Source: Gammaproteobacteria bacterium (GTDB taxonomy: Bacteria; Pseudomonadota; Gammaproteobacteria; JBCCGL01). From it: a stretch of DNA of 64,000 nt. The notes beneath the pieces are model-generated. The model was not told the DNA's origin. It made no database searches and saw nothing but the letters and a program-made list of their open reading frames with translations. Of this stretch, positions 2,164 to 37,581 are shown in pieces. The stretch is from positions 2,688,001 to 2,752,000 of the forward strand of contig OZ255836.1 in the NCBI GenBank assembly GCA_965277715.1, written 5' to 3'. Position 1 is the first letter of the stretch. Every line of letters starts with the position of its first letter. Position numbers and translations under genes: made by a program.

Positions 2164-3459
2164 TTGAACACCACTCCGCTTGGCGCATTATTTACTGTGC
2201 TGGCTATTCTCATTGTGCTTTCGGGATTCTTTTCCGGCTCCGAAACGGCACTGATGACCTTAAACCGCTACCGCCTGCGCCACCTGGCCAATAGTGGCCA
2301 TCGCGGTGCACGGCTCGCATCACACTTGCTCACACAGCCCGACCGTCTGCTCGGTTTGATTCTGCTTGGCAATAACTTCATCAATATTTCAGCCTCTGCC
2401 CTGGCGACGGTTATCGCCTTGCGTTTATACGGTGAAGCGGGTATTGCGCTGGCCACCGGCCTACTCACACTGGTCATACTGATCTTTGCCGAAGTCGCAC
2501 CCAAAACACTCGCCGCCCGGCACCCCGAACCCCTGGCGTTTTTTGCCTCGTATCTCTACACCCCGCTATTACACCCATACTGCCCGCTGGTGTGGGTGGT
2601 GTGGGTGGTCAACTTCCTGTCCAATGGGCTGTTGCGGCTACTGCACCTATCACCCGAGCAGGCCGACGACGATAAACTCAACGCTGAAGAACTGCGCACG
2701 GTAGTCAATGAAGCGGGCGGCCTGATCCCGGAAGAACACCAGACCATGTTGTTGAACATCCTCGATCTGGAAAAAATTACCGTCAACGATATTATGGTGC
2801 CGCGCCACGAGATTAGCGGCATTGACCTGGAAGATAGCTGGAAAGAAATTTCGCAGCAGATTACCGGCAGTGGGCATAGCCGTTTACCTGTCTACAGCGA
2901 GAGTATCGATAACGTTGAAGGGTTCATCTATCTACGCAAATTTATCGACCTGCGGCGTCGCAAGGAAGTCACACTCGGACACCTTAAATCACAAATCCAC
3001 GAAGCGTATTTCATTCCTGAAAACACTCCCCTCACGGTGCAATTGCTGAATTTTCAAAAAGATGCCAAACGCATTGGCCTGGTGGTCGATGAATACGGTG
3101 ACATTCTTGGCCTGGTGACGGTTGAGGATATTCTTGAGGAAATCGTCGGCGAATTTACTACTGGCCCGGGCGCCGGGGAAACCATCACAGTCGAGACAGA
3201 CGGCAGCCTGACCGTCGATGGCAGCACCGCAGTGCGCTACCTGAACCGCCGCCTCGGCTGGAAGATACCAATGGATGGCCCCAAAACGCTGAACGGGTTG
3301 ATTCTCGAATACCTGGAAGATATCCCCACACCGGGCACGACCTTTTTAATCGATAAACGCCCTGTGGAGATTATCGAAACCCGCGACAACGTAGTGAAGA
3401 GTGCACGTATTTTTCCCATTATTGAGGAAAGCGCAAACGCACAGACTGGCGGTGACTGA
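2164..3459 (+). CDS. corB: HlyC/CorC (CNNM) family Mg2+/Co2+ transporter with CBS domains
   Basis: FFSGSETA, LLGNN, EVAPKT, MVPR, GHSRLP, VVDEYG..EDILEEIVGE motifs. Confidence 0.9.
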   Translation: MNTTPLGALFTVLAILIVLSGFFSGSETALMTLNRYRLRHLANSGHRGARLASHLLTQPDRLLGLILLGNNFINISASALATVIALRLYGEAGIALATGLLTLVILIFAEVAPKTLAARHPEPLAFFASYLYTPLLHPYCPLVWVVWVVNFLSNGLLRLLHLSPEQADDDKLNAEELRTVVNEAGGLIPEEHQTMLLNILDLEKITVNDIMVPRHEISGIDLEDSWKEISQQITGSGHSRLPVYSESIDNVEGFIYLRKFIDLRRRKEVTLGHLKSQIHEAYFIPENTPLTVQLLNFQKDAKRIGLVVDEYGDILGLVTVEDILEEIVGEFTTGPGAGETITVETDGSLTVDGSTAVRYLNRRLGWKIPMDGPKTLNGLILEYLEDIPTPGTTFLIDKRPVEIIETRDNVVKSARIFPIIEESANAQTGGD

Positions 3460-11756: not shown

Positions 11757-11835
11757 GCGCAGGTTGGGTCTCAAAGAGAGCAACCTTGCGTAAGGTACTT
11801 TTTTTAATATTGCTTCTTTTGGAGAATATAGTATG
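11757..11835 (+). promoter_or_regulatory. ROSE-like RNA thermometer in the ibpA 5' UTR
   Basis: 5' hairpin (AGGTTG..CAACCT) then ATATT-G-CTTC-TTTT-GGAG-AATAT, with the UUGCU motif pairing the SD and leaving a bulged G. Confidence 0.75.
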
Positions 11836-12288
11836 AACACCATCGATTTAACCCCCCTCTACCGCAGCACTGTTGGTTTTGACCGCTTTGGTTCACTGCT
11901 GAATACCGCGCTACGCGGCGAACAGGTTTCTGCCGGTTACCCCCCTTACAACATCGAAGTGACCGGTGACGACCAGTACGACATCACCCTGGCAATCGCA
12001 GGCTTTGAAAACAGCGAGCTAGACATACAGGTGGAACAGGGCGTACTCACCGTACGCGGCAAAAAAGTAGCGGCGGACAACACCCGCACATACCTGTATC
12101 AGGGCATTGCCAACCGTAGCTTTGAGCGTAAATTCACCCTCGCGGACCACGTTGAAGTGACGGATGCAACATTTGAAAACGGTCTGTTAAGCATCAGCTT
12201 AGTCAAGGAAATACCTGAGGCGATGAAGCCGAAAAAAATTGCCATTAACAGTACCGAAAAAGTTATTCCTCACAGCAAGGCCGCGTAA
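11833..12288 (+). CDS. ibpA: Small heat shock protein (Hsp20)
   Basis: DLTPLYRSTVGFDR, YPPYNIE, YLYQGIA.R.FER.F, NGLL.I.L..EIPEAMKP. Confidence 0.93.
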   Translation: MNTIDLTPLYRSTVGFDRFGSLLNTALRGEQVSAGYPPYNIEVTGDDQYDITLAIAGFENSELDIQVEQGVLTVRGKKVAADNTRTYLYQGIANRSFERKFTLADHVEVTDATFENGLLSISLVKEIPEAMKPKKIAINSTEKVIPHSKAA

Positions 12289-12299
12289 AACCGGGTGTT

Positions 12300-12328
12300 C
12301 TGGCAGCGGTAGCACATACCGCTGCCAG
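12300..12328 (+). terminator. Strong stem-loop after ibpA
   Basis: CTGGCAGCGGTA-GCACA-TACCGCTGCCAG perfect 12-bp stem; no clear U tract. Confidence 0.5.
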
Positions 12329-12403
12329 GAGCCTGTCGGGCCTAGCTCCCGTGCCAACCAAAACCTGAAAATTTTGGGGCGCACCGTTTTTTCCGAATAA
12401 AGC

Positions 12404-12432
12404 AATAAAGGGTACTGACCCCAATACCGCTA
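12404..12432 (+). repeat. Copy of the IS4 left junction (target plus first 11 bp of the inverted repeat)
   Basis: AATAAAGGGTACTGACCCCAATACCGCTA is identical to 36035-36063. Confidence 0.85.
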
Positions 12433-12626
12433 GTGCAGTTGAAGGTGTAGCTAGTGGCGTAAAAGTGACTTCAGGGCAATTAATTGGTGTAACAGATTTA
12501 AGTGGTCGATCTTCTGGCCCGCATCTACATTTCACAGTGCAGACTGGTTCAAGCCATTCAACTCGTTACAATCCGGTTGACTATTTTCGAAGAAATATTC
12601 CAACTTTAAATATTAGTTACAAATAG
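12432..12626 (+). pseudogene. Orphan C-terminal M23 peptidase fragment (toxin-tip-like), not in the ORF track
   Basis: Manual translation SAVEGVASGVKVTSGQLIGVTDLSGRSSGPHLHFTVQTGSSHSTRYNPVDYFRRNIPTLNISYK*; contains the M23 GQLIG..SSGPHLHF motif; no start codon. Confidence 0.8.
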
Positions 12627-12655
12627 CTCAGCATATAGAAAGAGATTAGATAGAT

Positions 12656-13117
12656 ATGGTTAAACTTGTAAAACAGAATTTGCTTTGCATACTTTTGGTG
12701 TCATGCACTTTGTCGGCTCAAAATTTGGCAGATGAAGCGTTAAATTTACTGAAAAATGAACGAAAAAACCTTACTGATATAAGATTAATTGATATTGAAG
12801 ATTATGATCGGTGGGATCAGGTTAATCTTGCGAATCAACAATGTGCTTTTGTTAAACAATTTGATTTAACACACGATGGAAAGAAAGAACTATTTTTAGC
12901 AGGGTATAGTAAAAAGTTTAGTAATGCCTATTTGTTAATATTTTCTACCAATCCCTTAGATTTGCTGAAAGTTCAAGAATTTTCTCATCCTCAATTATGT
13001 ATTGTTAAGTCGCAAAACAGTCTCCGTGTTATTAACAAATTCGGTACAGAAATGGAGGGAGATATAATCTGGGATGGGATGGAGATTAACTTTGTACCGT
13101 ATATTCCAGATTATTAA
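12656..13117 (+). CDS. Hypothetical exported protein/lipoprotein, candidate immunity protein
   Basis: AT-rich, lipobox-like LLVSC, immediately after the M23 fragment. Confidence 0.55.
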   Translation: MVKLVKQNLLCILLVSCTLSAQNLADEALNLLKNERKNLTDIRLIDIEDYDRWDQVNLANQQCAFVKQFDLTHDGKKELFLAGYSKKFSNAYLLIFSTNPLDLLKVQEFSHPQLCIVKSQNSLRVINKFGTEMEGDIIWDGMEINFVPYIPDY

Positions 13118-13138
13118 AAAATAGGTGCCAGGTCCACA

Positions 13139-13543
13139 TTAATTTCTGATGGTCTGACTTTCGCCGACCAGCTTTTGCATATTGGACCGTGCCACTAAAC
13201 CATCAAGCATAATCACCAGTGCTTGTTGGTCCTGGTCGGGTAAATTATCGACTTTCTCGTAGAGGTGCAACAGTTTATTGTTGCGGATTTTGGGTTCGGA
13301 AATGGACTCAGTGCGGCCGACGAGTTCATCAAGGCTGACCTTTAGAATATCAGCAATCTTAATCAATGTATCCAGTTGGGGCATATTGCTACCGCGCTCC
13401 CAACGGTTGTAGGCACGCGGGTCTATATCCAATAAACTAGCGAGCCGTGCTTGCGTCATACTCCTTTCCTCTCTTAGCTGCTTGAGCCTTTTGGCAAAGT
13501 CGATCATGGGAATCAGTTCAATCAAGTTGTTACTGGTTGGCAT
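13139..13543 (-). CDS. XRE-family HTH transcriptional regulator
   Basis: FAKRLKQLR..MTQ..LA..YNRWERG..P.LDTLIKIADIL.VSLDELVGR. Confidence 0.9.
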   Translation of the reverse strand: MPTSNNLIELIPMIDFAKRLKQLREERSMTQARLASLLDIDPRAYNRWERGSNMPQLDTLIKIADILKVSLDELVGRTESISEPKIRNNKLLHLYEKVDNLPDQDQQALVIMLDGLVARSNMQKLVGESQTIRN

Positions 13544-13601
13544 TATATGGCCTCATTAAAATTGTCAATTTGATAATCATCATATATGTCTATTGACACT
13601 A

Positions 13602-13741
13602 TTTTTAATTAATGCAGAAATTATGCGCAATGGCTGGCTTCAGTTAGCGGTATAAAACCATCACATCATTTTTTTCCTTTAGCCGCTAACACAAGCCATT
13701 CCATTGGCCGCTGCGCCGCATAATTTGCATTATGTGTAAAT
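13602..13741. other. Fold-back element of two inverted dif-like (XerC/XerD) sites
   Basis: Plus strand GCGCCGCATAA-TTTGCA-TTATGTGTAAAT (13713-13741); minus strand ATTGCGCATAA-TTTCTGCA-TTAATTAAAAA (13631-13602); the sequence between them is also self-complementary. Confidence 0.55.
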
Positions 13742-13947
13742 GCTGCGGTGGCTGTAAGGGTATTGTTGCTGATGCAACAATATAACTCTTTGTCCCCCCT
13801 GAATCCCCCCAGGGTGGACGTTGCCAATTATTAATCCTGGCTCGCTTCGCTTGCCAGTATCAATAATCGCCTCGGCGGCTGAGGAAAAAGGTGCGTCGGG
13901 AATTTTTTTGCTACAATGAACCTTGAACTGGAAAAACTGAGTGATAA

Positions 13948-14430
13948 GTGTTTGTAGCCACTAGCGAAAATCCCATCTTTGCCTACGATGTGCGTTGGTG
14001 TCATCCACATGCACAAGAGGGGCAACAAAATCCATTATATGCAGTTGCTGACGGCAAAGTATTTCGTGCGGGTTATCAAAACCCTAATGACGCTGATAGC
14101 GGGCTAGGTTTCAGGTTATCGACTAGTGATGAAGATGGGTATTATCAGTATGGTCATTTAGATCCGGATAGTCTTACTGTTAGTGTGGGAGACACGATAA
14201 AGAAAGGAAACCTTATCGGTAGTTACGCTGATCCTACAAATGGGGGTTCAAGCGGTCCTCATGTGCATTTAGAAAGGAGGTTGTGGTCTAATCCTCGAGT
14301 GACTGTAAATCCAGGTAATATATCACCTCTTAGACCTACTGGAGTAATATCTGCCCACTGGAATAGAACTGATAGAGTGCATAAAACACCGCATCAAGGG
14401 ATAGATTGGGCTTACCCAAGGAGTGATTAA
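13948..14430 (+). CDS. M23-family peptidase domain with circularly permuted motif order, probable orphan toxin tip
   Basis: YAVADGKV, YGHL..V.VGD.IKKG.LIG, SSGPHVH, then C-terminal ISAHW..HQGIDW; the true start is uncertain. Confidence 0.75.
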   Translation: MFVATSENPIFAYDVRWCHPHAQEGQQNPLYAVADGKVFRAGYQNPNDADSGLGFRLSTSDEDGYYQYGHLDPDSLTVSVGDTIKKGNLIGSYADPTNGGSSGPHVHLERRLWSNPRVTVNPGNISPLRPTGVISAHWNRTDRVHKTPHQGIDWAYPRSD

Positions 14431-14963
14431 TGTCTAAGTATATATGTTTTTTAATTTGTGTTTTGATTACTGGAGCCTGTAATGCTAGTAATTTGATTTC
14501 TTGTGGTTCTTCTTCACTAGATGTTACAGTTGAAAAGCACTATGAGGGGCAAAGCGTTTTTATCAGGATATTTGATAGCGAAGGGAAAAAATTGCTGTTT
14601 CCTATTTTGATAAATAAAGGAAAATTTCTTTCTTTGTGTGAACAAAGTAAATTCTTATTAATTAATGATACTGCTCATTACAAGCCTGGAGCGTCTTTTT
14701 TAATGAGATACGATGGTCAGGTATTGGCGAGTTTTGAATTTGGACTAATAGCTAGTATTGAGAAGTCCGAAGATGATAAATTATTTTGGGTTCAGAACTT
14801 TGACATTTTAGAAGATAGAAGACCAGTAACTATTTTAAATGTCTATAATGAACATGGAGATAGTGTTGTCAACCAGACGTTTAAGAATCGACAAATCTAT
14901 TCGTTAAATGTAAATGATGTTGAATACCATATCTCAATAAAGGCACCTGAATATCCAGGGTAA
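14430..14963 (+). CDS. Hypothetical lipoprotein, candidate immunity protein
   Basis: Lipobox-like LITGAC; TAATG overlap with the M23 gene; AT-rich. Confidence 0.6.
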   Translation: MSKYICFLICVLITGACNASNLISCGSSSLDVTVEKHYEGQSVFIRIFDSEGKKLLFPILINKGKFLSLCEQSKFLLINDTAHYKPGASFLMRYDGQVLASFEFGLIASIEKSEDDKLFWVQNFDILEDRRPVTILNVYNEHGDSVVNQTFKNRQIYSLNVNDVEYHISIKAPEYPG

Positions 14964-15103
14964 TTATCTAGCCACCATCCGATTAAGCTGTGCCTTTTTG
15001 ATAAGGCTATCAATCACTTGGTAAACGATCAATTAAGAGCGTTCTATATTTTACGTTCGATTTTCTTCAGACTGTTTTTAAGTTAAATTTTTTGGAGGAT
15101 TTC

Positions 15104-15890
15104 ATGAACAAACGCAGTCGAGACAGCCAGCCCAACGGGCTCGGGCAACTGGCGCAGGTCAGCGACAGCCAGGGCTATATTGAGCGCTATGAGTACGACC
15201 GACTCGGCCGCAACCAGTTAACCCGCACCACCTTGCCCGGACACGGGGAATACACCCAACGGCAAACCTTCGATGCTTACGGTCGGCTATTTCAACAGTT
15301 CGACGCCAGCAGTGGCCAGCGCAACAACGGGGTGCGGGGGCTGCAGTATCGTTACAATGCTTTAGGTTTTCAGCAGTGTATTGAATCGGTGCGTCGCAGT
15401 GGCGACCGCCCGCAGTTGATTTATTACGAAGTCGAGCAAGTGGATGTCCGTGGCAACATCACCCGCAGTCGTCAAGGCAATGGCATTGTCACCGCCAAAA
15501 CCTACAACGCCGCCACGGGTCGGCTTGAGCAAGTCAATGGCACGCGGCTTGATCAAAGCCAAGTACAAGCACTCACCTATGAATGGGACCGCCTTGGTAA
15601 CTTAACTCGCCGCCAAGAGGGCAGTGGCAATAGTGATTTGACGGAGGTGTTTAGATATGACCGAATGAATCGGCTGGTTAATGTATGGTTGATGTATGGA
15701 TTCCACAGAGTTACAAATCATACCCTACGCTACGATAAAATTGGCAATATCACCTACAAATCCGATGTGGGCAACTATCAATACGGCGCCAATGGCGCAG
15801 ACCCCCATGCGGTGACCAGTGCAGGCGGTGCCAGCTATGCCTACAATGCCAATGGCAACCAAATCCGTGGTGATAACCGCACCCTGCAAT
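15104..15890 (+). pseudogene. Rhs/YD-repeat protein fragment truncated by IS3
   Basis: YEYDRLGR, FDAYGR, YEWDRLGN, YDRMNRL, YDKIGNITYKSDVG, PHAV, YNANGN repeats; the frame runs into the IS end at 15891. Confidence 0.85.
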
Positions 15891-15955
15891 TGATGTGGCT
15901 ACACTAATTCGGACCCCTCACTTGAAGTAAACTGAGTTTACGCGAGGAACCGAAA

Positions 15956-16243
15956 ATGAAAGAGAAGCAATCCTATACGGCTGATTTTAGAGAGTCAGCG
16001 GTTAAATTAGTCCTGAAAAACGACCAGCCTATAGCCGCGACCGCACGCGAACTGGGCGTGAACGAGAATACTTTGCATACCTGGATCAGCAAGTATAGCC
16101 AACCGAAAGCGGATGGCAGTGGCCACAGCGATGAGCACTTATATGATGAACTCAAACAGTTGAAAAAAGAAAACGCGCGTTTGAAAGAGGAACGCGACCT
16201 GTTAAAAAAGGCGGCCGCGTACTTTGCCAAGGAACAAGCGTGA
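15956..16243 (+). CDS. IS3 transposase OrfA
   Basis: YTADFRESAV..ARELGV...TL..W HTH; coiled coil ending ERDLLKKAAAYFAKE. Confidence 0.9.
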   Translation: MKEKQSYTADFRESAVKLVLKNDQPIAATARELGVNENTLHTWISKYSQPKADGSGHSDEHLYDELKQLKKENARLKEERDLLKKAAAYFAKEQA

Positions 16244-17102
16244 AGTACGCCTGGATACAGCAACATCAATCCGGCTATGGTGTTCGACCTCTTTGTCGCT
16301 TTATGGCGGTTTCCATTAGCGGCTATTATGCGTGGTCAAAACAATGCACCACAGCACGCTATCAGGAAGATCAACAGCTGACAGAACGTCTGCACGTCTT
16401 TTTTGAGCAAGGACGAGGGACTTATGGTGCCCGGCGTTTAAAGCATTTGTTTGCCAATGAAGGGTTCGTATCAGTCGCCGCCGAATAGGCCGTCTCATGG
16501 TACAAGCAGGGCTTTGTTGCCGTACCAAACGTAAGTTCAAAGTGACAACAGACTCCAAACACCATAACCCCATTGCGCCCAATCATCTGAATCGAGCCTT
16601 CACCGTTGAACAACCTGACCGCTGTTATGTTGGTGACATTACCTCCATCTGGACGCAACAGGGCTGGCTTTACCTGGCCGTCGTGATTGACCTGTTCTCT
16701 CGTCAAATAGTGGGTTGGTCTATCCAATCACACATGAGAACCAGTCTGGTGGATGACACATTGCTGATGGCGATTTGGCGGCGTAAGTCCAAAGCTGGCC
16801 TGCTATGGCACACAGATCGTGGCTGCCAGTATGCCTCTAATCACCATCGCCGCTTACTAAAACAACACCATATTATTCAAAGTATGAGCTGCAAAGGCAA
16901 TTGCTGGGATAACAGCGTGGCTGAAAGTTTTTTCCACACCTTGAAAACCGAATTAATTTACCCACAAACCGGGTCAACCCGAGAGGAGGTCAGACAAGCT
17001 ATTTTTGAATATATTGAAGTCTTTTACAATCGCCAGCGATTACATTCCGCTAATGGCTATTTGTCACCCGTGGATTATGAACTGTCTAAAAAGATCGCTT
17101 AA
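16240..17102 (+). pseudogene. IS3 transposase OrfB (DDE), frameshifted near 16470
   Basis: Split into 16240-16488 and 16497-17102; the ISRRRIGRLM segment sits in the second frame; GDIT, HTDRG.QY, GNCWDN.VAESFF motifs. Confidence 0.85.
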
Positions 17103-17155
17103 ACATGTGTCCGATAATGTGTTGACACATCAGAGTGGCTGTGAAAGAACGTGTA

Positions 17156-17914
17156 ATGACTGGTGCAATATCGACTTATTTGCCCGAAAAGTGCTATGGA
17201 TTTATCAAAGGGGATGATGGTAAAGACTACTTTTTCCATGAGCAAGATTTTGATGATAAACAGCAGATAAGTGGTTTGTGTGAAGCGGCTTTCGTCGAAT
17301 TTGACCAGCAGGCTACACCAAAGGGATATAAGGCCCGGCGCTGTCGACTTATCGATGCTGCAAAAGTTATGACCTATGTCACGCCGGATGGCGTTCTCAC
17401 TTCGCGTTCAAATAGTATTCGCGGTTGGGATATGGTGGAGTGTGGAGGTTGGATTGTGCATGGCACTTCATCAGGTTCACCCGATGCGGCAAGAAAGGAG
17501 GTAATAAAGCATGCGATATTATTAGAAGCCAATGCGGTAGTTGAGCTTGAATACTACAAGACAACAGGATCGGAGCAAGGCACGGGAAGAGGTACACACT
17601 ATTATACAATTCACAATTTTCGTGGGCGTCCAGCCGTTGTCGCTAAACGAAATGCGAGAGGGCAATATCGAAAAGAAGATCTATTGGGCGTAAACGAACG
17701 AGCGCAGAAGATGAAAGATAAATTTGAGGAAGAGGCTAACAGGAGTGCAAATTGGAGTCTTATCGTATCCGTCGTGCTTGCCGCTATTATCTATTTTGCG
17801 TGGGATGAATCCACACAGGCAGTGGTCATTTGTGTAATTATCGGCTGCATTTCCATAGCTCTTCTAGACTCGTCAGACGATGGTAAATGGTTGGAAAAGG
17901 TGGGTGAATCCTAA
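17156..17914 (+). CDS. Cold-shock-domain protein with a YbjQ-like middle domain and two C-terminal TM helices
   Basis: KCYGFIKGDDGKDYFFH (RNP motifs); ANAVV..Y..G pattern; hydrophobic C-terminus; ORF is open from 17135. Confidence 0.7.
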   Translation: MTGAISTYLPEKCYGFIKGDDGKDYFFHEQDFDDKQQISGLCEAAFVEFDQQATPKGYKARRCRLIDAAKVMTYVTPDGVLTSRSNSIRGWDMVECGGWIVHGTSSGSPDAARKEVIKHAILLEANAVVELEYYKTTGSEQGTGRGTHYYTIHNFRGRPAVVAKRNARGQYRKEDLLGVNERAQKMKDKFEEEANRSANWSLIVSVVLAAIIYFAWDESTQAVVICVIIGCISIALLDSSDDGKWLEKVGES

Positions 17915-18027
17915 GATATTTTTCGCCTATTTTGCTCTGTTACATGCCACAAGAAAACGTCTTCTTTTTCACCTATTGAAAAGACACTTAAAGCGCCTAT
18001 ACTACTAAGTATAGGTGACGGAATAAG

Positions 18028-18408
18028 ATGATGAATACGACAATAACTTCTGCGAAAGAGAACTCAGAACCTAGCGCATTGCGTAGCTGGGTGCTGTTCT
18101 TCTTAACGTTACTGGCTGCCTTCATAGCCTGGAATGTGGCAGAGGCGCTTGGTGCCGACACCCTGTTTCAAGTCGTAATTGCGGTATTTGTCCTTGCCAT
18201 CAACCGCGATATCCGTGAAGGGTTTATTGAAGGTATTATGACGAATCTTAATCGTGAGGCAGCGCCCACGTCTTGCGAAGATCGAGAGATCATCGATGAC
18301 AATGGCGGCGACTATAGTATTGGCCATGAAAAGGGTTGGGGATATGATTCGGATGGCAATTACACTTATGGATGGAAGTTGCATCCAGGGAGCCACAGGC
18401 TTCGTTAG
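18028..18408 (+). CDS. Small two-TM protein with acidic/aromatic tail, candidate ICE entry-exclusion protein (variant A)
   Basis: Convergent with a traG 3' end; paralog at 20081; TTGAAA-N16-TATACT promoter at 17976-18003. Confidence 0.55.
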   Translation: MMNTTITSAKENSEPSALRSWVLFFLTLLAAFIAWNVAEALGADTLFQVVIAVFVLAINRDIREGFIEGIMTNLNREAAPTSCEDREIIDDNGGDYSIGHEKGWGYDSDGNYTYGWKLHPGSHRLR

Positions 18409-18734
18409 ATTCCAGAACGATTCACCCCGCCAGCGAGGGCTGGTGGGGTGAGTGCTCCCTGGCCTCTGCCTGCGCCTGTTGCTGATTTAGCTACATCTTT
18501 TACATCCCCACCAAACGCTGCATTATCCAAGCTGCTGCCCGCCTTCCAGCCCGCCATGGTCAGGACGGGCGAGCAGAGCAGCGCCATTGGTTAAGCCTTT
18601 CACAGCCGTTTTGGCACCCCATTTGGCTATACCCCCCCACCACATCACCGCCCGTTTTTAGTAGGCCCTTGGGGGTGTACTTGAAATTCCACGCTTTGCT
18701 TGCCAGGTTACGTGTCGTTGCACGCCAGCTCACT
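18405..18734 (-). pseudogene. TraG_N-type conjugal transfer protein remnant with internal deletion
   Basis: LTMAGWKAGSSLDNAAFGGDV is shared with 20511-21146; deletion at a GCGAG microhomology. Confidence 0.7.
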
Positions 18735-18803
18735 ATACAAATATGTTAAAGAGGCTGATCAAGACATGGCGTGAAATACACTCTCCAACTAATCAGGCTT
18801 ACC

Positions 18804-19787
18804 TCAAGTCGGCGCTGCCTCTGGTGGTTGCGCTGAAAGAAAAGATAGCAACTCCGGTATATCATCATCATGCGCCATAATATAGTTCCCCCCTGACGGC
18901 ACACTACCCCCCTCTATCGGCCCTGCCAGATGAGGCAAGTAATCATCAAAACGGACAATATGGTGATAAAAATCAACCTCCTCGACAATAGCATATGTTT
19001 GATAATCCATCGACTGCATCAGCTCAATAACCTTACGGTTATTATCAATCACATATTGGTAGCTTGGATCGTTTTCTGCGGGAATATTGGCAATTTCACA
19101 ATGAATACAGGGGCGGTATTGCTGGAGTGTGCGCGCTAAACCCTTGAGAATATCCAGTTCTGCTCCCTCTGCATCAATTTTAATAATAGACAGTGCATCT
19201 ATCGATAACTGCTGTAACAGTGAATCTGCCGAAAATGTCGGCACTATGTTGTTAAAATTACTATCCCCCTGGTTAATTGTTGGGTGAATAGACGAGCAGG
19301 GATCAGCATAACGTGAAGCATAAAAAGTCCGCAATCCATTGGTATCAGCCAGCGCAACCGGGAGAACATGGCAATGTGTACCCCAGCTATTGGCACCAAT
19401 TAATTCATTAATAAATGCAAACGACGCATAGTTTGGCTCAAAGCCGTAATACTCACCATCGTGTATATCTAAACTATTACACACTGCCTGATACCTAATT
19501 AAAAATTCACCTGCATGTGTACCAATATCAAACGCAACTCCCGGTTTTACCTGTAACGCGGCATGAATGCACTTCGACATAAAAAATTCATTGGGAACGA
19601 TCAAATACTTTCCCATCCAACTGGTTAAGGGCATCGTTAATTCAAGCCCTAAGTGTTCCACTTGTCTTTTTCTGAATCGAAGCTTGTAGAGAAAACTATG
19701 CCATTCCCTTAAAAACTTCTTCCGCCCCCACCAACGTGCCGGGTAGGAATACATTGCATCATATTGTTTGAGATTTTTATTATTCAT
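18804..19787 (-). CDS. FkbM-family SAM-dependent methyltransferase
   Basis: FDIGTHAG, GFEPN, PVALAD, IIKIDAEGAEL.IL.G. Confidence 0.85.
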   Translation of the reverse strand: MNNKNLKQYDAMYSYPARWWGRKKFLREWHSFLYKLRFRKRQVEHLGLELTMPLTSWMGKYLIVPNEFFMSKCIHAALQVKPGVAFDIGTHAGEFLIRYQAVCNSLDIHDGEYYGFEPNYASFAFINELIGANSWGTHCHVLPVALADTNGLRTFYASRYADPCSSIHPTINQGDSNFNNIVPTFSADSLLQQLSIDALSIIKIDAEGAELDILKGLARTLQQYRPCIHCEIANIPAENDPSYQYVIDNNRKVIELMQSMDYQTYAIVEEVDFYHHIVRFDDYLPHLAGPIEGGSVPSGGNYIMAHDDDIPELLSFLSAQPPEAAPT

Positions 19788-19988
19788 ATCTCGTTGATCT
19801 GGGGGATTTAAGCGCGGAGAGAGTAAACGTTCTCATTCTGGAAAGCAATGCCAACGGTAAATAGCCATCGGGAACTACCGTAGTGAGTGGCTATTTTGGA
19901 CAGACCAACTACGCCGCCGTCAAAGTGGTGATTCATGGTTTATAATGGTAAGACCCACGCGCAAAAAAATATTTTTTCTCATTTCCCC

Positions 19989-21132
19989 CTGTTACATGCC
20001 ACAAGAAAACCCCCTCTTTTTCAACTATTGAAAAGACAATGAAAGCGCCTATACTATTAAACGTAAATGACGGAATAACGATGATGAATACGACAATAAC
20101 TTCTACCAAAGAGAACTCAGAACCTAGCGCATTGCGTAGCTGGGTGCTGTTCTTCTTAACGTTACTGGCTGCCTGCATAGCCTGGAATGTGGCAGGGGCA
20201 CTTGGCGCCGACACCCTGCTTCAAGTCGTAATTGCGGTATTTTTCTTTGCCATCAACCGCGATATCCGTGAAGGGTTTATTGAAGGTAGTATGACGAACC
20301 TTAATCGTGAGGCAGCGCCCACGCCTTGCGAAGATCGAGAGATCATTGATGATGACGACGATAAAGGTGGGATGGGCTGGGGTTTGGACTATTCCGGCGA
20401 TTATACCTATGGGCCTAGAGCACGTGACGGAAGGGTAAAAGCATAGAGTTGATGAAAAAGCTGGTCAGGCAAATGTGCTCTGATCAGTTTTTGTCTTTAT
20501 TATTGTCAGATTATTTGGTTAAACCCCTCCCCACATTTGCTAGTTTATCCACATCCCCACCAAACGCTGCATTATCTAAGCTACTGCCCGCTTTCCAGCC
20601 AGCCATAGTTAGGACGAGCGAGAGTACAATGGGTAAGACCAGGTAAAGTAGCCCTACCAAAATTAAAAATACCGTATTTTCAATTGGGTTTCTCACCGCA
20701 TCCCAAACGGAAAGCCGGGCGCCAACGGATGGGTACATAGTAGACCATAGATTGTGCTCCAGGTAATTCGCAGCGGTGAATAGCGATGTCCAGAACTTCA
20801 CCGAAATGAAGAATACAGTGAGCGCAAACACAGCGCTCCACTGTGCTCCGGCCAGCACCCAGGCCCAGGGTAATACCATAATCATCGCCATTAAAATCAT
20901 CGCCTGTACCATTGGAGCGAGGATCTTGATGATTTCGATCTTGGCAAGGAACCCTGTTGTCTCGCTGGCGAGCAGAGCGGCGCCATTGGTTAAGCCTTTT
21001 ACCGTTGTTTTGACACCCCATTTGGCTACACCCAACGCCGCATCACCGCCCGTTTTTAACAGACCCTTTGGGGTGTACTTGAAATTCCATGCTTTGCCTG
21101 CCAGGTCACGTGTCGTTGCACGCCAGCTCACT
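19989..21132. repeat. Cassette copy B: promoter, small membrane gene and convergent traG remnant
   Basis: Homologous to 17937-18734; homology ends at CGCCAGCTCACT in both copies. Confidence 0.9.
20081..20446 (+). CDS. Small two-TM protein, candidate ICE entry-exclusion protein (variant B)
   Basis: First ~90 aa nearly identical to 18028-18408 with a divergent C-tail; same promoter at 20028-20055. Confidence 0.55.
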   Translation: MMNTTITSTKENSEPSALRSWVLFFLTLLAACIAWNVAGALGADTLLQVVIAVFFFAINRDIREGFIEGSMTNLNREAAPTPCEDREIIDDDDDKGGMGWGLDYSGDYTYGPRARDGRVKA

Positions 21133-21146
21133 GAGGCCTTTATCAC
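20511..21146 (-). pseudogene. C-terminal fragment of a TraG_N-type conjugal transfer protein (integrative conjugative element type)
   Basis: PMVQA..M...LP...F..FW..A..LE..L and LYLVLP..AGW pattern of ICE TraG_N proteins; the N-terminal part is missing. Confidence 0.75.
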
Positions 21147-21160
21147 TCCTTTATCAGAAT

Positions 21161-22168
21161 TTAGCGCCAGGGCTGTCCTTTGATTGCCACCTGCTCATCC
21201 ACAATGGTTTTGCTCAGCAGACAGACACAGGCATAAATTGACCGCAGCGCGGGTACATCGGTATTCGTCATTTCCGCCAGTTCGATCACCGCCCCCAGCA
21301 TACCGTCAATCTCCAGCGGTTTGCCCGCCTCCACATCCTGCAACATTGAGGTTTTGTGTTTGCCGACTTTCTCGGCACCTTCAATACGGCGCTCCAGCGT
21401 AACGCGAAAGCTGGCGCCCAGTTTTTCTGCAACTGCCTGCGCTTCAAGCATCATCGTTGCTGCCAGTTGACGGGTGAGCGGGTATTGGCAAATGGCCTCC
21501 AGGGTGGCGTGGGTTACTGCACTGATGGGGTTAAACGACAAATTGCCCCACAGTTTGAGCCATATTTCTGAGCGGATATCCGCCAGTACCGGTGACTTAA
21601 AGCCCGATTCGATAAACATCTGCGCAACCTTATTGGCCCGTTCAGAGTCTGTGCCGTCTAACTCACCTACCGGAAAGCGGATGCCTTCTACATGCTGAAT
21701 CACCCCCGGCTCGGCAATAACCGCCGCCGGATAGGCGATACACCCCAAAATGCGTTGCGGATCAATGGCTTTTGCCAATACGCCACTCGGGTCAACCGTT
21801 TCCACAGTGCGTTTATCGTAGTCACCGCCCAGCTTTTGAAAATACCACCAGGGAATGCCATTTTGCAGTGTCACCATCACCGTTTCTTCACCAAACAAGG
21901 TGGGGAGCTTATCGACAATCGGGGATATTTGGTGGGCTTTTAGCGCCATGATGACTACATCCTGTGCATCGAGTGTGGCAATGTCGTCGGTGGCGATAAC
22001 ATTTTTGGCCAGTAATTCCTCACCGCCCTGAATTAACTTCAGGCCGTTGGCTTTAATCGCCGCCAGGTGCGGCCCACGGGCAACCAGTGACACCGTGTGC
22101 CCGGCATCAGCCAGACGCACACCGAGCAGGCCGCCGATAGCGCCTGCACCTACAACACATACTTTCAT
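21161..22168 (-). CDS. 2-dehydropantoate 2-reductase family protein (PanE-like)
   Basis: GAGAIGG, LKAH, QNGIPWWYF, EIWLKLWGN, TSMLQD...GKPLEID. Confidence 0.88.
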   Translation of the reverse strand: MKVCVVGAGAIGGLLGVRLADAGHTVSLVARGPHLAAIKANGLKLIQGGEELLAKNVIATDDIATLDAQDVVIMALKAHQISPIVDKLPTLFGEETVMVTLQNGIPWWYFQKLGGDYDKRTVETVDPSGVLAKAIDPQRILGCIAYPAAVIAEPGVIQHVEGIRFPVGELDGTDSERANKVAQMFIESGFKSPVLADIRSEIWLKLWGNLSFNPISAVTHATLEAICQYPLTRQLAATMMLEAQAVAEKLGASFRVTLERRIEGAEKVGKHKTSMLQDVEAGKPLEIDGMLGAVIELAEMTNTDVPALRSIYACVCLLSKTIVDEQVAIKGQPWR

Positions 22169-35927: not shown

Positions 35928-36052
35928 CTTTGCTACTGCCCTTCAGTACTATCCATGCCGTGTTGGCATCGACCAGCAAGCTATGATAAGCCTCTCTGCC
36001 TCTATAAAGCTATCCGGGTCGGAGTGCGCGAACAAATAAAGGGTACTGACCC

Positions 36053-37581
36053 CAATACCGCTACCTCAGCCTGGTGAAGAACTAAAATAACGTTAAAAGT
36101 CATATAGATGGGTAACGTTAGGTTTCCTTTTGAAGTATCCTTGTAAGCGACAAAACACACAAGTACTTCGCCAAAAAACCTAACGCTGACCTATTCTATG
36201 AAATTCGCTATCCGACAGCAAATTAAAACGATCAAATGTGTTTTTTTTCAGTTAAACACAGGAGACTTTAATAATTTACTCTGTTCCAAGCGTCTAAACG
36301 ACCTAAGCGAACTATCGGGCAGCTATCGAGACCGGGTATTCACCCCACTTGTTACACTGCGTTTATTTCTCTGGCAGGTGTTAAGTGATAATGGCAGTTG
36401 TAAAGAAACAGTCGCCCGTCTGCTAGTTGATCGTTTACAGGAAAACCTGCTTCCAAGTTCTTTTAATAGCGGTCCTTACTGTAAAGCCCGTCAACGTTTA
36501 TCTCTGTCGTGGGTACTTCAGGAGGTACGTTCAATCGGTTCAACGTTACATGCCAGAGCAGGTAAAATTTGGACATGGAAAGGGTATAATGTGGTGCTTG
36601 TGGATGGAACCACTGTTCTCATGCCTGATACCCAGAAAAATCAACATAAATACCCCCAGCAACAGACTCAAAAACCGGGTTTAGGTTTTCCTATTGCTCG
36701 AATAGTCGGACTCATTTCTTTAAGTTCTGGCGCTATTATTGATTATGCAATGGGAGAGTATCAAGGAAAGGGAACAGGGGAAATGTCATTATTCAGTACC
36801 CTGATGACGTCATTAACCGCCAATGATCTGTTACTGGCAGACCGCTATTACTGTACTTATGCTGTCTTAGCGGCTCTACAATCGAAAGGGGTTGCATTCG
36901 TCTCAATGAATCACGCACAAAAGAAAGCGGATTACAAAACAGGGTTAACGCTTGGTGCAAAAGATCATCTTATCGAGTGGGAAAAACCTAAAAGAAAACC
37001 GGTTTGGATGTCGCAATCAGACTTTGATCTATTGCCGAAAACCCTGACAGTTCGAGAATTTTCAGTGGATGGGACAGTCTATGTTAGCACTTTGTTGGAG
37101 GTTGATACTTACCCTAAGAAAGAGCTTTCAACACTGTATAAGGAACGTTGGAAAGTTGAATTGGATTTTCGTACAATTAAAACAGATTTGAAAATGGATA
37201 TGTTGCGATGCCATTCACCCGAGATGGTTGAAAAAGAAATAGCAACAACCTTTATGGCTTATAACCTGATTCGGGGTAGCATGGCAGAGTCAGCAAAAAC
37301 AGAGGGTGAAATAGCACGTCAAATAAGTTTTAAGGCAACGGTACAGCTACTGGGTATTGCTCATATTAAATTCATCCATTCAACATCCAGTATGATACAA
37401 AAAGCGTACACTTCCTTATTAAGGATAATCGCTTCAACGTTAATTGGCAGGAGAAAACGATCACCCCAACCAAGGGCAATTAAACGACGACCAAAAGCCT
37501 ACCCACTGTTAACTGAACCTCGTATCAAGGCCTCTCAGAGACTAAAAGATTCATTGGGTTAAACCTGAGGTAGCGGTATTG
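36053..37581 (+). mobile_element. IS4-family insertion sequence, 1529 bp, with 11-bp target duplication
   Basis: Perfect 17-bp inverted repeats CAATACCGCTACCTCAG / CTGAGGTAGCGGTATTG; GGTACTGACCC at 36042-36052 and 37582-37592. Confidence 0.95.
36198..37562 (+). CDS. IS4-family transposase
   Basis: YCKARQRL, VDGTT, ADRYY, LYKERWKVELDFRTIK (YREK signature). Confidence 0.95.
   Translation: MKFAIRQQIKTIKCVFFQLNTGDFNNLLCSKRLNDLSELSGSYRDRVFTPLVTLRLFLWQVLSDNGSCKETVARLLVDRLQENLLPSSFNSGPYCKARQRLSLSWVLQEVRSIGSTLHARAGKIWTWKGYNVVLVDGTTVLMPDTQKNQHKYPQQQTQKPGLGFPIARIVGLISLSSGAIIDYAMGEYQGKGTGEMSLFSTLMTSLTANDLLLADRYYCTYAVLAALQSKGVAFVSMNHAQKKADYKTGLTLGAKDHLIEWEKPKRKPVWMSQSDFDLLPKTLTVREFSVDGTVYVSTLLEVDTYPKKELSTLYKERWKVELDFRTIKTDLKMDMLRCHSPEMVEKEIATTFMAYNLIRGSMAESAKTEGEIARQISFKATVQLLGIAHIKFIHSTSSMIQKAYTSLLRIIASTLIGRRKRSPQPRAIKRRPKAYPLLTEPRIKASQRLKDSLG

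Follow-up and report, generated by a model that had tools for sequence, protein, structure and literature searches.

A dif-like hairpin beside an RstR-family repressor gene: candidate remains of a mobile module between toxin–immunity cassettes

What is a pair of inverted dif-like sequences doing between two toxin–immunity cassettes? The question is raised by positions 13139-13742 of a 64-kb stretch of a gammaproteobacterial genome (contig OZ255836.1; hereafter the window), where a 404-nt gap separates an XRE-type repressor gene from the second of two cassettes with an M23-peptidase toxin domain. The original prediction for this locus held that the inverted pair, which lies in the gap, folds back on itself and marks a minimal, non-autonomous element that moves or stacks the cassettes through host Xer proteins. 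The comparative analyses described below place the same hairpin in relatives beside genes for a recombinase and a primase. On balance they favor a different account, in which the region would be the remains of a mobile module with the hairpin as its folded recombination site, the copy in the window being derived from such a module by deletion.

Inverted dif-like sites as a conserved folded family

The 29-mer singled out in the original prediction is present at 13713-13741 on the plus strand (site A). It consists of a XerC-like arm with its core at 13717-23, a 6-nt spacer (13724-29), and a XerD-like arm (13730-41) with one extra base, which recurs in two relatives (L098 and L114; L numbers denote loci fetched for comparison). 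Chromosomal dif is a single 28-bp XerC-6-XerD site at the replication terminus, against 29 nt here. In the window, the GC skew changes sign near 29 kb, from negative to positive, a pattern that does not look terminus-like. The inverted partner, site B (13602-13631, minus strand), keeps a XerC-like arm and an 8-nt spacer, and control-region sequence has taken the place of its XerD-like arm. As had been proposed, the pair folds. The 10-nt arms at 13618-27 and 13717-26 are 100% complementary, and between the sites a nested stretch pairs 13635-50 with 13683-98 (88%). As single-stranded DNA (ssDNA), 13596-13745 folds at -30.7 kcal/mol, with a z score of -5.16 that none of 200 shuffles equaled (z -4.51 for 13597-13745). 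The whole hairpin (13602-13742, plus strand) thus runs from site B through a variable inner stem-loop (13632-13706) and a bulge on the 3' side (13707-13716) into site A. The outer duplex of the XerD-like arms, paired in relatives, is unpaired in the window fold.

Relatives were collected with the XRE protein as query. A metagenome scan yielded 80 loci; a scan of viral contigs yielded another 80, with similarity mainly in the helix-turn-helix part and at most 52% identity; and a scan of genome contigs gave five distant Firmicute/Clostridia matches (33-42% identity). A plasmid DNA search with window positions 12400-15000 returned no match. When the gap was compared by BLASTN with all fetched loci, only the dif-like site matched, in L098, L102, L114, and L131. 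A pattern search for dif-like cores that have a XerC-like arm in inverse orientation at most 170 nt upstream detected inverted pairs in seven of the 80 metagenome loci (L094, L098, L102, L109, L114, L131, and L153) and in none of the 80 viral or five Firmicute loci, whose XRE genes are more distant. Half-site profiles run over all fetched loci (1.45 Mb) added no further copy. Three other scans were set aside: a strict dif-core pattern, applied up to 450 nt upstream of XRE homologues, found the window alone besides unrelated matches in L111, L112, and L147; a generic palindrome scan suffered from noise in AT-rich viral loci, where it gave 18 chance-like matches; and a minimum-energy scan past the recombinase was swamped by GC-rich sequence in high-GC loci.

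All eight copies, seven from relatives and one from the window, share an ssDNA fold (z -2.3 to -5.4) with a common layout. From the outside in, a G/C stem leads to the XerD-like arm duplex, a partly mismatched center, the XerC-like arm duplex, and then a bulge and an inner stem-loop. The bulge measures about 10 nt and occurs on the 3' side only, and the sequence of the inner stem-loop is specific to each locus. The spacers are asymmetric, with 6-7 nt in site A and a longer one in site B, and the two sites lie 36 to about 116 nt apart with no gene enclosed.

To describe this family, a covariance model (R1) was built from six metagenome loci, leaving out the window. A MAFFT alignment of all eight hairpins had misplaced the window and L153, and the alignment was rebuilt from six sequences, with the model as guide. 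R1 recovered 13602-13742 of the window on the plus strand with 40.7 bits (E 9.2e-6 in 508,767 bases, both strands). Because the model contains no window sequence, this recovery is the strongest evidence against a chance resemblance. The six model loci score 69-104 bits in the forward direction and 16-40 in reverse. In the seven-row model alignment, 94.5% of cells are paired, compared to 23-45% when the partner is slid along. Both sides have changed in 14 of 30 pairs, and the observed score was reached by none of 500 shuffles. Two of the pairs with compensation belong to the XerC-like arm duplex, indicating that an arm change in one site has been mirrored in its inverted partner. Within the hairpin, conservation is highest in the XerD-like arm. 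Variant hairpins in L095 (3765-3886) and in L166 from Caballeronia (about 3300-3420), as well as weak candidates in L126 (1587-1690), retain this XerD-like outer arm and differ in the inner arm. The sequence of the variants hints that inner arms track the module's own recombinase.

Gene neighborhood and alternative roles of the hairpin

The XRE gene (13139-13543, minus strand) is intact and encodes a 134-residue RstR-family repressor with an HTH_3 domain. The NCBIfam model NF041951 (phage_RstR) scores 91.7 bits against a cutoff of 80 and covers profile positions 2-107 of 108. The protein has 222 homologues, mostly metagenomic, with 51-67% identity among the non-self matches listed; it also matches Affertcholeramvirus (CTXphi) records, none of which is in the best 20 matches listed, where identity is 28-50%. 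At least 250 nt upstream of the XRE gene are available in 67 of the 80 metagenome loci. In 56 of them, the N-terminus of a DnaG-type primase of about 1000 residues is encoded divergently within 300 nt of the XRE start; a Pfam match in L087 raises the count to 57 of 67, leaving ten without the primase. The primase is DnaG/TraC-like and of conjugative size, with a zinc ribbon and a Toprim_2 domain. Directly downstream of it, 17 loci encode a tyrosine recombinase. The three recombinases that were scored exceed the cutoff of 371 bits for NF002331 (site-specific tyrosine recombinase XerC) at 465-478 bits and remain below the integron-integrase cutoffs (119-126 bits against 265 for TIGR02249; 74-81 against 435 for NF011946).

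In L094, L098, and L102, the order is hairpin, an open reading frame (ORF) of 76-103 codons or a structured spacer, recombinase, and primase; the divergent XRE gene ends the module in L094 and L102, and the L098 contig stops inside the primase. L109 carries a ParE gene and two further small ORFs between hairpin and recombinase. Across recombinase and primase, the hairpin of relatives is about 4.7 kb from the XRE gene. In L098, L109, L114, L131, and L153, it also occurs downstream of an XRE gene at a distance of 0.9-3.2 kb, with the relative orientation unchanged. In L098 and L109 the recombinase of a next unit follows the hairpin, and L098 keeps the C-terminus of that unit's primase, which indicates that units can be arranged in tandem.

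These distances bear on the simplest alternative, that the hairpin is an operator of the XRE gene or a small RNA gene. Its position 60 nt upstream of the XRE start in the window would suit such a role, which is nevertheless very improbable, given that the hairpin of relatives is removed from the XRE start by primase and recombinase or lies on the other side of the XRE gene altogether. Moreover, the XRE control region has a motif of its own. An 11-nt sequence is invariant in the primase–XRE intergenic region of all 17 loci inspected (L086-L164) and recurs in the window at 13588-13598, accompanied by an inverted partial copy (13558-69 versus 13592-603). This motif is probably the operator of the repressor. 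Together with a sigma-70-like promoter site for the XRE gene (13608-13579, minus strand), it lies in what remains of the divergent primase–XRE control region (13544-13608). A search of Rfam gave no match for the hairpin region.

A second alternative would assign the hairpin to replication, transfer, or transcription, as a structured DNA or RNA element such as a primase single-strand initiation (ssi) site, part of an origin of transfer (oriT), or an operon terminator, with dif-like arms that are incidental. Its location at the 3' end of the primase–recombinase operon, within a cluster of hairpins, is in keeping with this reading, as are the conjugative size of the primase and the presence of a TrwC relaxase and TrwB coupling protein in some loci. 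So is the long hairpin that L094 and L102 carry 35-100 nt beyond the stop codon of the recombinase and that is followed by a C-run/G-run hairpin. The details of the paired arms render the reading unlikely. The conserved paired parts coincide exactly with an 11-6-11 Xer-type core in which arm changes are compensated; the variants keep the XerD-like arm and change the other, fitting recognition by a pair of recombinases; and G-U pairs occupy three of 199 cells, unlike in typical RNA helices.

The long hairpin of L094 (about 640-770) and L102 (about 2770-2870) has a stem of about 35 bp and shows compensatory differences between the two loci. It lies inside an annotated short ORF, which may not be a gene. 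In both loci, the region from the recombinase to the dif-like hairpin is a hairpin cluster.

Downstream of the XRE gene, the cargo of the relatives varies. Some loci carry toxin–antitoxin toxins (SymE, BrnT, ParE, or MazF). A TrwC relaxase and TrwB are encoded in L115, L118, and L120, and a relaxase only in L128. In L091, L094, L102, L105, L107, L129, and L160, a convergent Rhs gene or toxin or immunity domains follow. SymE is the gene that follows the XRE gene in L094, L098, and L162.

The modules of relatives adjoin Rhs genes, CdiA/TpsA genes, and orphan toxin–immunity cassettes. The hairpin thus recurs beside primase and tyrosine-recombinase genes and next to Rhs or contact-dependent inhibition (CDI) cassettes; whether it recurs beside such genes or between Rhs modules was a check suggested with the original prediction. 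Toxin loci are linked to these genes in named records as well. In the Pseudomonas aeruginosa plasmid pPA1609-475, a TpsA2 toxin is followed by a small ORF, VbhA, the XRE gene, the primase, XerC, a RelE-type pair, and then fragments; a 3.8-kb repeat then starts inside the toxin 3' end and reaches a second primase, cut by an insertion sequence (IS). A Janthinobacterium lividum plasmid repeats this order after an FG-GAP-repeat protein and has an Imm26 gene farther on. In a Pantoea dispersa plasmid (L167; NZ_CP109854), cdiBAI and an XRE homologue are followed by SymE genes alternating with VENN-domain orphan modules and immunity genes, and no primase, recombinase, or hairpin was found within 12 kb. 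Such arrays can thus contain the XRE gene while the rest of the module is missing, which is also the situation in the window.

The window copy as a deletion relic

Window alignments to the control region of relatives end at 13604-13608, and alignments to the left half of the hairpin begin at 13610. Control region and hairpin are thus directly joined, with the junction at 13605-13610. The spacer, recombinase, and primase that intervene in relatives are missing, and neither a homologue nor a remnant of primase or recombinase was detected in the window (71 ORFs scanned by Pfam; tblastn). The fusion and the absence of both genes identify the window copy as a deletion relic. Of the features of the family, it retains the RstR-family gene with its motif and the folded hairpin. 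In none of the 80 relatives are the XRE gene and the hairpin juxtaposed in this manner. Site B is a hybrid, and the site in the window is probably inactive. A breakpoint at the border of arm and spacer would suit an aberrant event catalyzed by the recombinase.

The relic also bears on the element originally proposed, a minimal, non-autonomous element of the IMEX class (integrative mobile elements that exploit Xer) that would resemble CTXphi/RS1 and use host XerC and XerD alone to move or stack toxin–immunity cassettes. The claim that it has no recombinase or replicase of its own describes the window relic correctly but fails for the relatives, which carry the XerC-family recombinase beside the hairpin and the large primase. 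Several observations agree with such an element: the site architecture fits the description of CTXphi attP(+), the neighboring gene belongs to the RstR family, the XerD-like arm is the most conserved, the window copy is without a recombinase, and the relic is fixed and identical in contigs of runs from three studies. Its probability is nonetheless low. Besides the recombinase of the relatives, the pairing of the XerD-like arms has been lost in the window, where the copy looks like a product of deletion; the direct XRE–hairpin juxtaposition occurs in none of the 80 relatives. No inovirus genes were found among the neighbors scanned by Pfam, and the window holds no second dif-like site that would bound an element.

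Other structures in the gap have been noted beside the hairpin. The C-rich tract and the further hairpin predicted to follow site A were both found. The tract (13794-13815, plus strand) is like the C-run/G-run hairpin ahead of the dif-like hairpin in L094, L098, L102, and L114, a likeness judged by eye, with the tract on the opposite side of the hairpin in the window. The second hairpin (13827-13867, plus strand) pairs 13827-41 with 13853-67 at 87% complementarity and matches neither the half-site profiles nor the covariance model; speculatively, it is possibly the collapsed remnant of a second module copy. By inspection only, tract and second hairpin together may be the trace of a second unit. 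A small, perfect 9-bp hairpin (13761-13782, plus strand) is terminator-like. The gap as a whole (13544-13947) has no second copy anywhere in the window, and no further hairpin of the same build was found in 12250-21300.

Proposed mechanism, known systems, and surroundings

Based on these comparisons, a complete module consists of the folded dif-like hairpin, a short structured spacer, the XerC-family recombinase, the primase of about 1000 residues, the divergent RstR-family repressor, and cargo. In relatives it immediately follows an Rhs- or CdiA-type toxin gene with its immunity gene, and orphan toxin–immunity cassettes are found beyond the hairpin. On one strand, the inverted dif-like sites would pair to create a single duplex core site with XerC-like and XerD-like arms, a mismatched central region, and a bulge on one strand, a build like that of CTXphi attP(+) and integron attC. 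The acting enzyme would be the module's own XerC-family recombinase, perhaps in combination with host XerD. The conjugative-type primase and the relaxase present in some loci would fit entry as ssDNA. In the window, about 4.7 kb has been lost, with a breakpoint in the XerD-like arm of site B that left a hybrid and probably inactive site beside an intact repressor gene.

Support for the folded-site reading comes from the anatomy of the core site, compensatory changes in the arms, an asymmetry that is conserved, a location next to the recombinase gene, and agreement with the published account of CTXphi attP(+). Several points weigh against it. The pair counts come from seven partly related sequences that were aligned to the very structure under test, and a DNA palindrome can keep its symmetry without selection for folding. 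Among the 15 loci whose sequence includes a recombinase and extends at least 500 nt past it, R1 finds the hairpin beyond the recombinase in four (L094, L098, L102, and L109), and no hairpin was found in L086, L115/L118, L160, L168, and L169. Patches of similarity run 60-500 nt beyond the hairpin on the cargo side, so that the hairpin is not clearly the end of an element, and each locus has one hairpin rather than an array. The breakpoint in the arm could reflect an ordinary deletion. No recombination junction, circle, or excised form was found; the contigs show one arrangement, with no joint in 12300-15900. It is important to note that contigs cannot reveal rare forms, and therefore a single arrangement says nothing about excision.

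Among known systems, integron attC sites are folded ssDNA hairpins whose outer arms are conserved and whose inner stem varies; they also have a bulge and central bases that stay unpaired. The hairpins described here share with them a fold with unequal strands and a Xer-related tyrosine recombinase beside stacked cassettes. They differ in their dif-like arms, in a recombinase that scores below the integron-integrase cutoffs, and in having one hairpin per locus instead of one per cassette, on which ground an integron-like array was rejected. The pdif modules of Acinetobacter plasmids are kilobase-sized groups of genes, some of them toxin–antitoxin genes, flanked by inverted XerC/XerD-type sites, and no fold is invoked for them. 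In contrast, the sites analyzed here are 36 to about 116 nt apart and enclose no gene, and the spacer between them is itself a covarying stem.

The closest counterpart is CTXphi attP(+), which the excerpted account of PMC4246890 describes as two inverted sites with central regions of 12 bp and 5-7 bp, 90 bp apart, folding over about 150 nt next to rstR. The same excerpts give the terms of comparison with CTXphi/RS1: short- and long-center inverted dif-like sites (attP2/attP1) with an adjacent RstR-family gene, and a spacing of 90 bp against 36 to about 116 nt here (PMC4246890). The resemblance to a folded phage attachment site that the original prediction had drawn is borne out, and the inverted pair is conserved; in the window copy the XerD-arm duplex is unpaired. 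Beyond the site, the systems diverge. Filamentous-phage genes (RstA/RstB, Zot) were not detected at Pfam thresholds among 71 window ORFs and 137 neighbor ORFs, and the relatives described here have their own XerC-family recombinase and DnaG/TraC-like primase in an Rhs/CDI setting.

Recombinases have been placed near immunity genes before. XerC/D genes beside polyimmunity loci, with a suggested role in gathering immunity genes, are mentioned in passing in the excerpted text of Zhang et al. 2012 (PMC3482391). In Bacteroidales, rAID-1 (recombinase-associated acquired interbacterial defense) clusters combine a tyrosine recombinase with arrays of orphan immunity or toxin genes and conserved intergenic motifs (PMC12247911). 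These clusters belong to a different phylum, and the excerpts of that report describe no primase, RstR-like repressor, folded dif-like site, or other defined site (PMC12247911). Full-text searches, with subscription journals outside their coverage, turned up no account of the module, nor of a folded dif-like site in an Rhs/CDI locus.

A more ambitious model, which we regard as possible but doubtful, casts the modules as vehicles dedicated to toxin tips. In this model they would enter as ssDNA, recombine through a CTXphi-like folded site by means of their own Xer paralogue and host XerD, and land behind an Rhs or CdiA gene, installing a new tip with its immunity gene and pushing the old pair downstream. 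If true, this would explain how orphan toxin–immunity arrays grow behind Rhs and CDI genes, which is usually credited to homologous recombination alone. Folded ssDNA sites are known from integrons and CTXphi-type phages, and a non-phage module with a Xer paralogue and a conjugative-type primase would be a third setting and would extend the range over which this chemistry is employed. A defined site and enzyme would also allow tests of toxin-tip exchange. What the window itself offers is modest: a relic, fixed in a gammaproteobacterium associated with sponges.

The relic is embedded in a low-GC patch (12.3-21.1 kb, GC 0.37-0.51) of a chromosome with a GC fraction of about 0.53-0.60. To its left in the window, an orphan 3' fragment of an M23-peptidase toxin domain (12405-12626, plus strand) covers positions 64-92 only of Peptidase_M23 and starts after a stop codon, inside a 29-bp repeat. 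It is followed by the putative immunity gene of this truncated cassette (12656-13117, plus strand; 153 residues). To the right, an orphan M23-peptidase toxin domain (13948-14430, plus strand; Peptidase_M23, 9e-12) starts after two stop codons without a delivery domain and is followed by another putative immunity gene (14430-14963, plus strand; 177 residues). Neither immunity gene has a Pfam, NCBIfam, or PHROG match, and both roles are assigned from position. Farther on, an Rhs-repeat fragment (15092-15907, plus strand; RHS_repeat) is cut by an IS3-family element (15956-17102) with HTH_Tnp_1 and rve domains, and the depth is multi-copy from 15890 on. No full-length Rhs gene is present among the 71 ORFs scanned.

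The 29-bp sequence is an exact direct repeat with copies at 12404-12432 and 36035-36063. The first copy coincides with the left border of the low-GC patch and with the point where the truncated M23 fragment starts; the second is found upstream of a DDE_Tnp_1 transposase gene (36198-37562), at a distance of about 135 nt. The repeat may be an IS end; the first copy may then be a solo end that stayed behind when a deletion took out the main toxin gene.

By its RadA, the host falls among uncultured Gammaproteobacteria, with Granulosicoccaceae as the best named relatives at about 75% identity, and the stretch occurs in sponge metagenomes. The arrangement of 11800-15918 is identical in contigs of runs from three studies, and one contig from another study shows 10 substitutions over 11800-15920 together with a 24-nt insertion. 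All of these changes lie outside 12523-14790, a 2.27-kb core (cassette, XRE gene, hairpin, cassette) where a uniform rate would give about 5.5 substitutions; strong constraint or recent spread could account for it. In runs X4 and X6, a 24-nt insertion lies inside the first copy of the 29-bp repeat.

In the right part of the patch, collinear repeat blocks of 388, 72, and 167 nt with 88-91% identity are found within 17913-18734 and 19966-21132. A gene for an FkbM-type methyltransferase (18804-19787) follows the first set, and a TraG_N fragment (20511-21146) overlaps the second.

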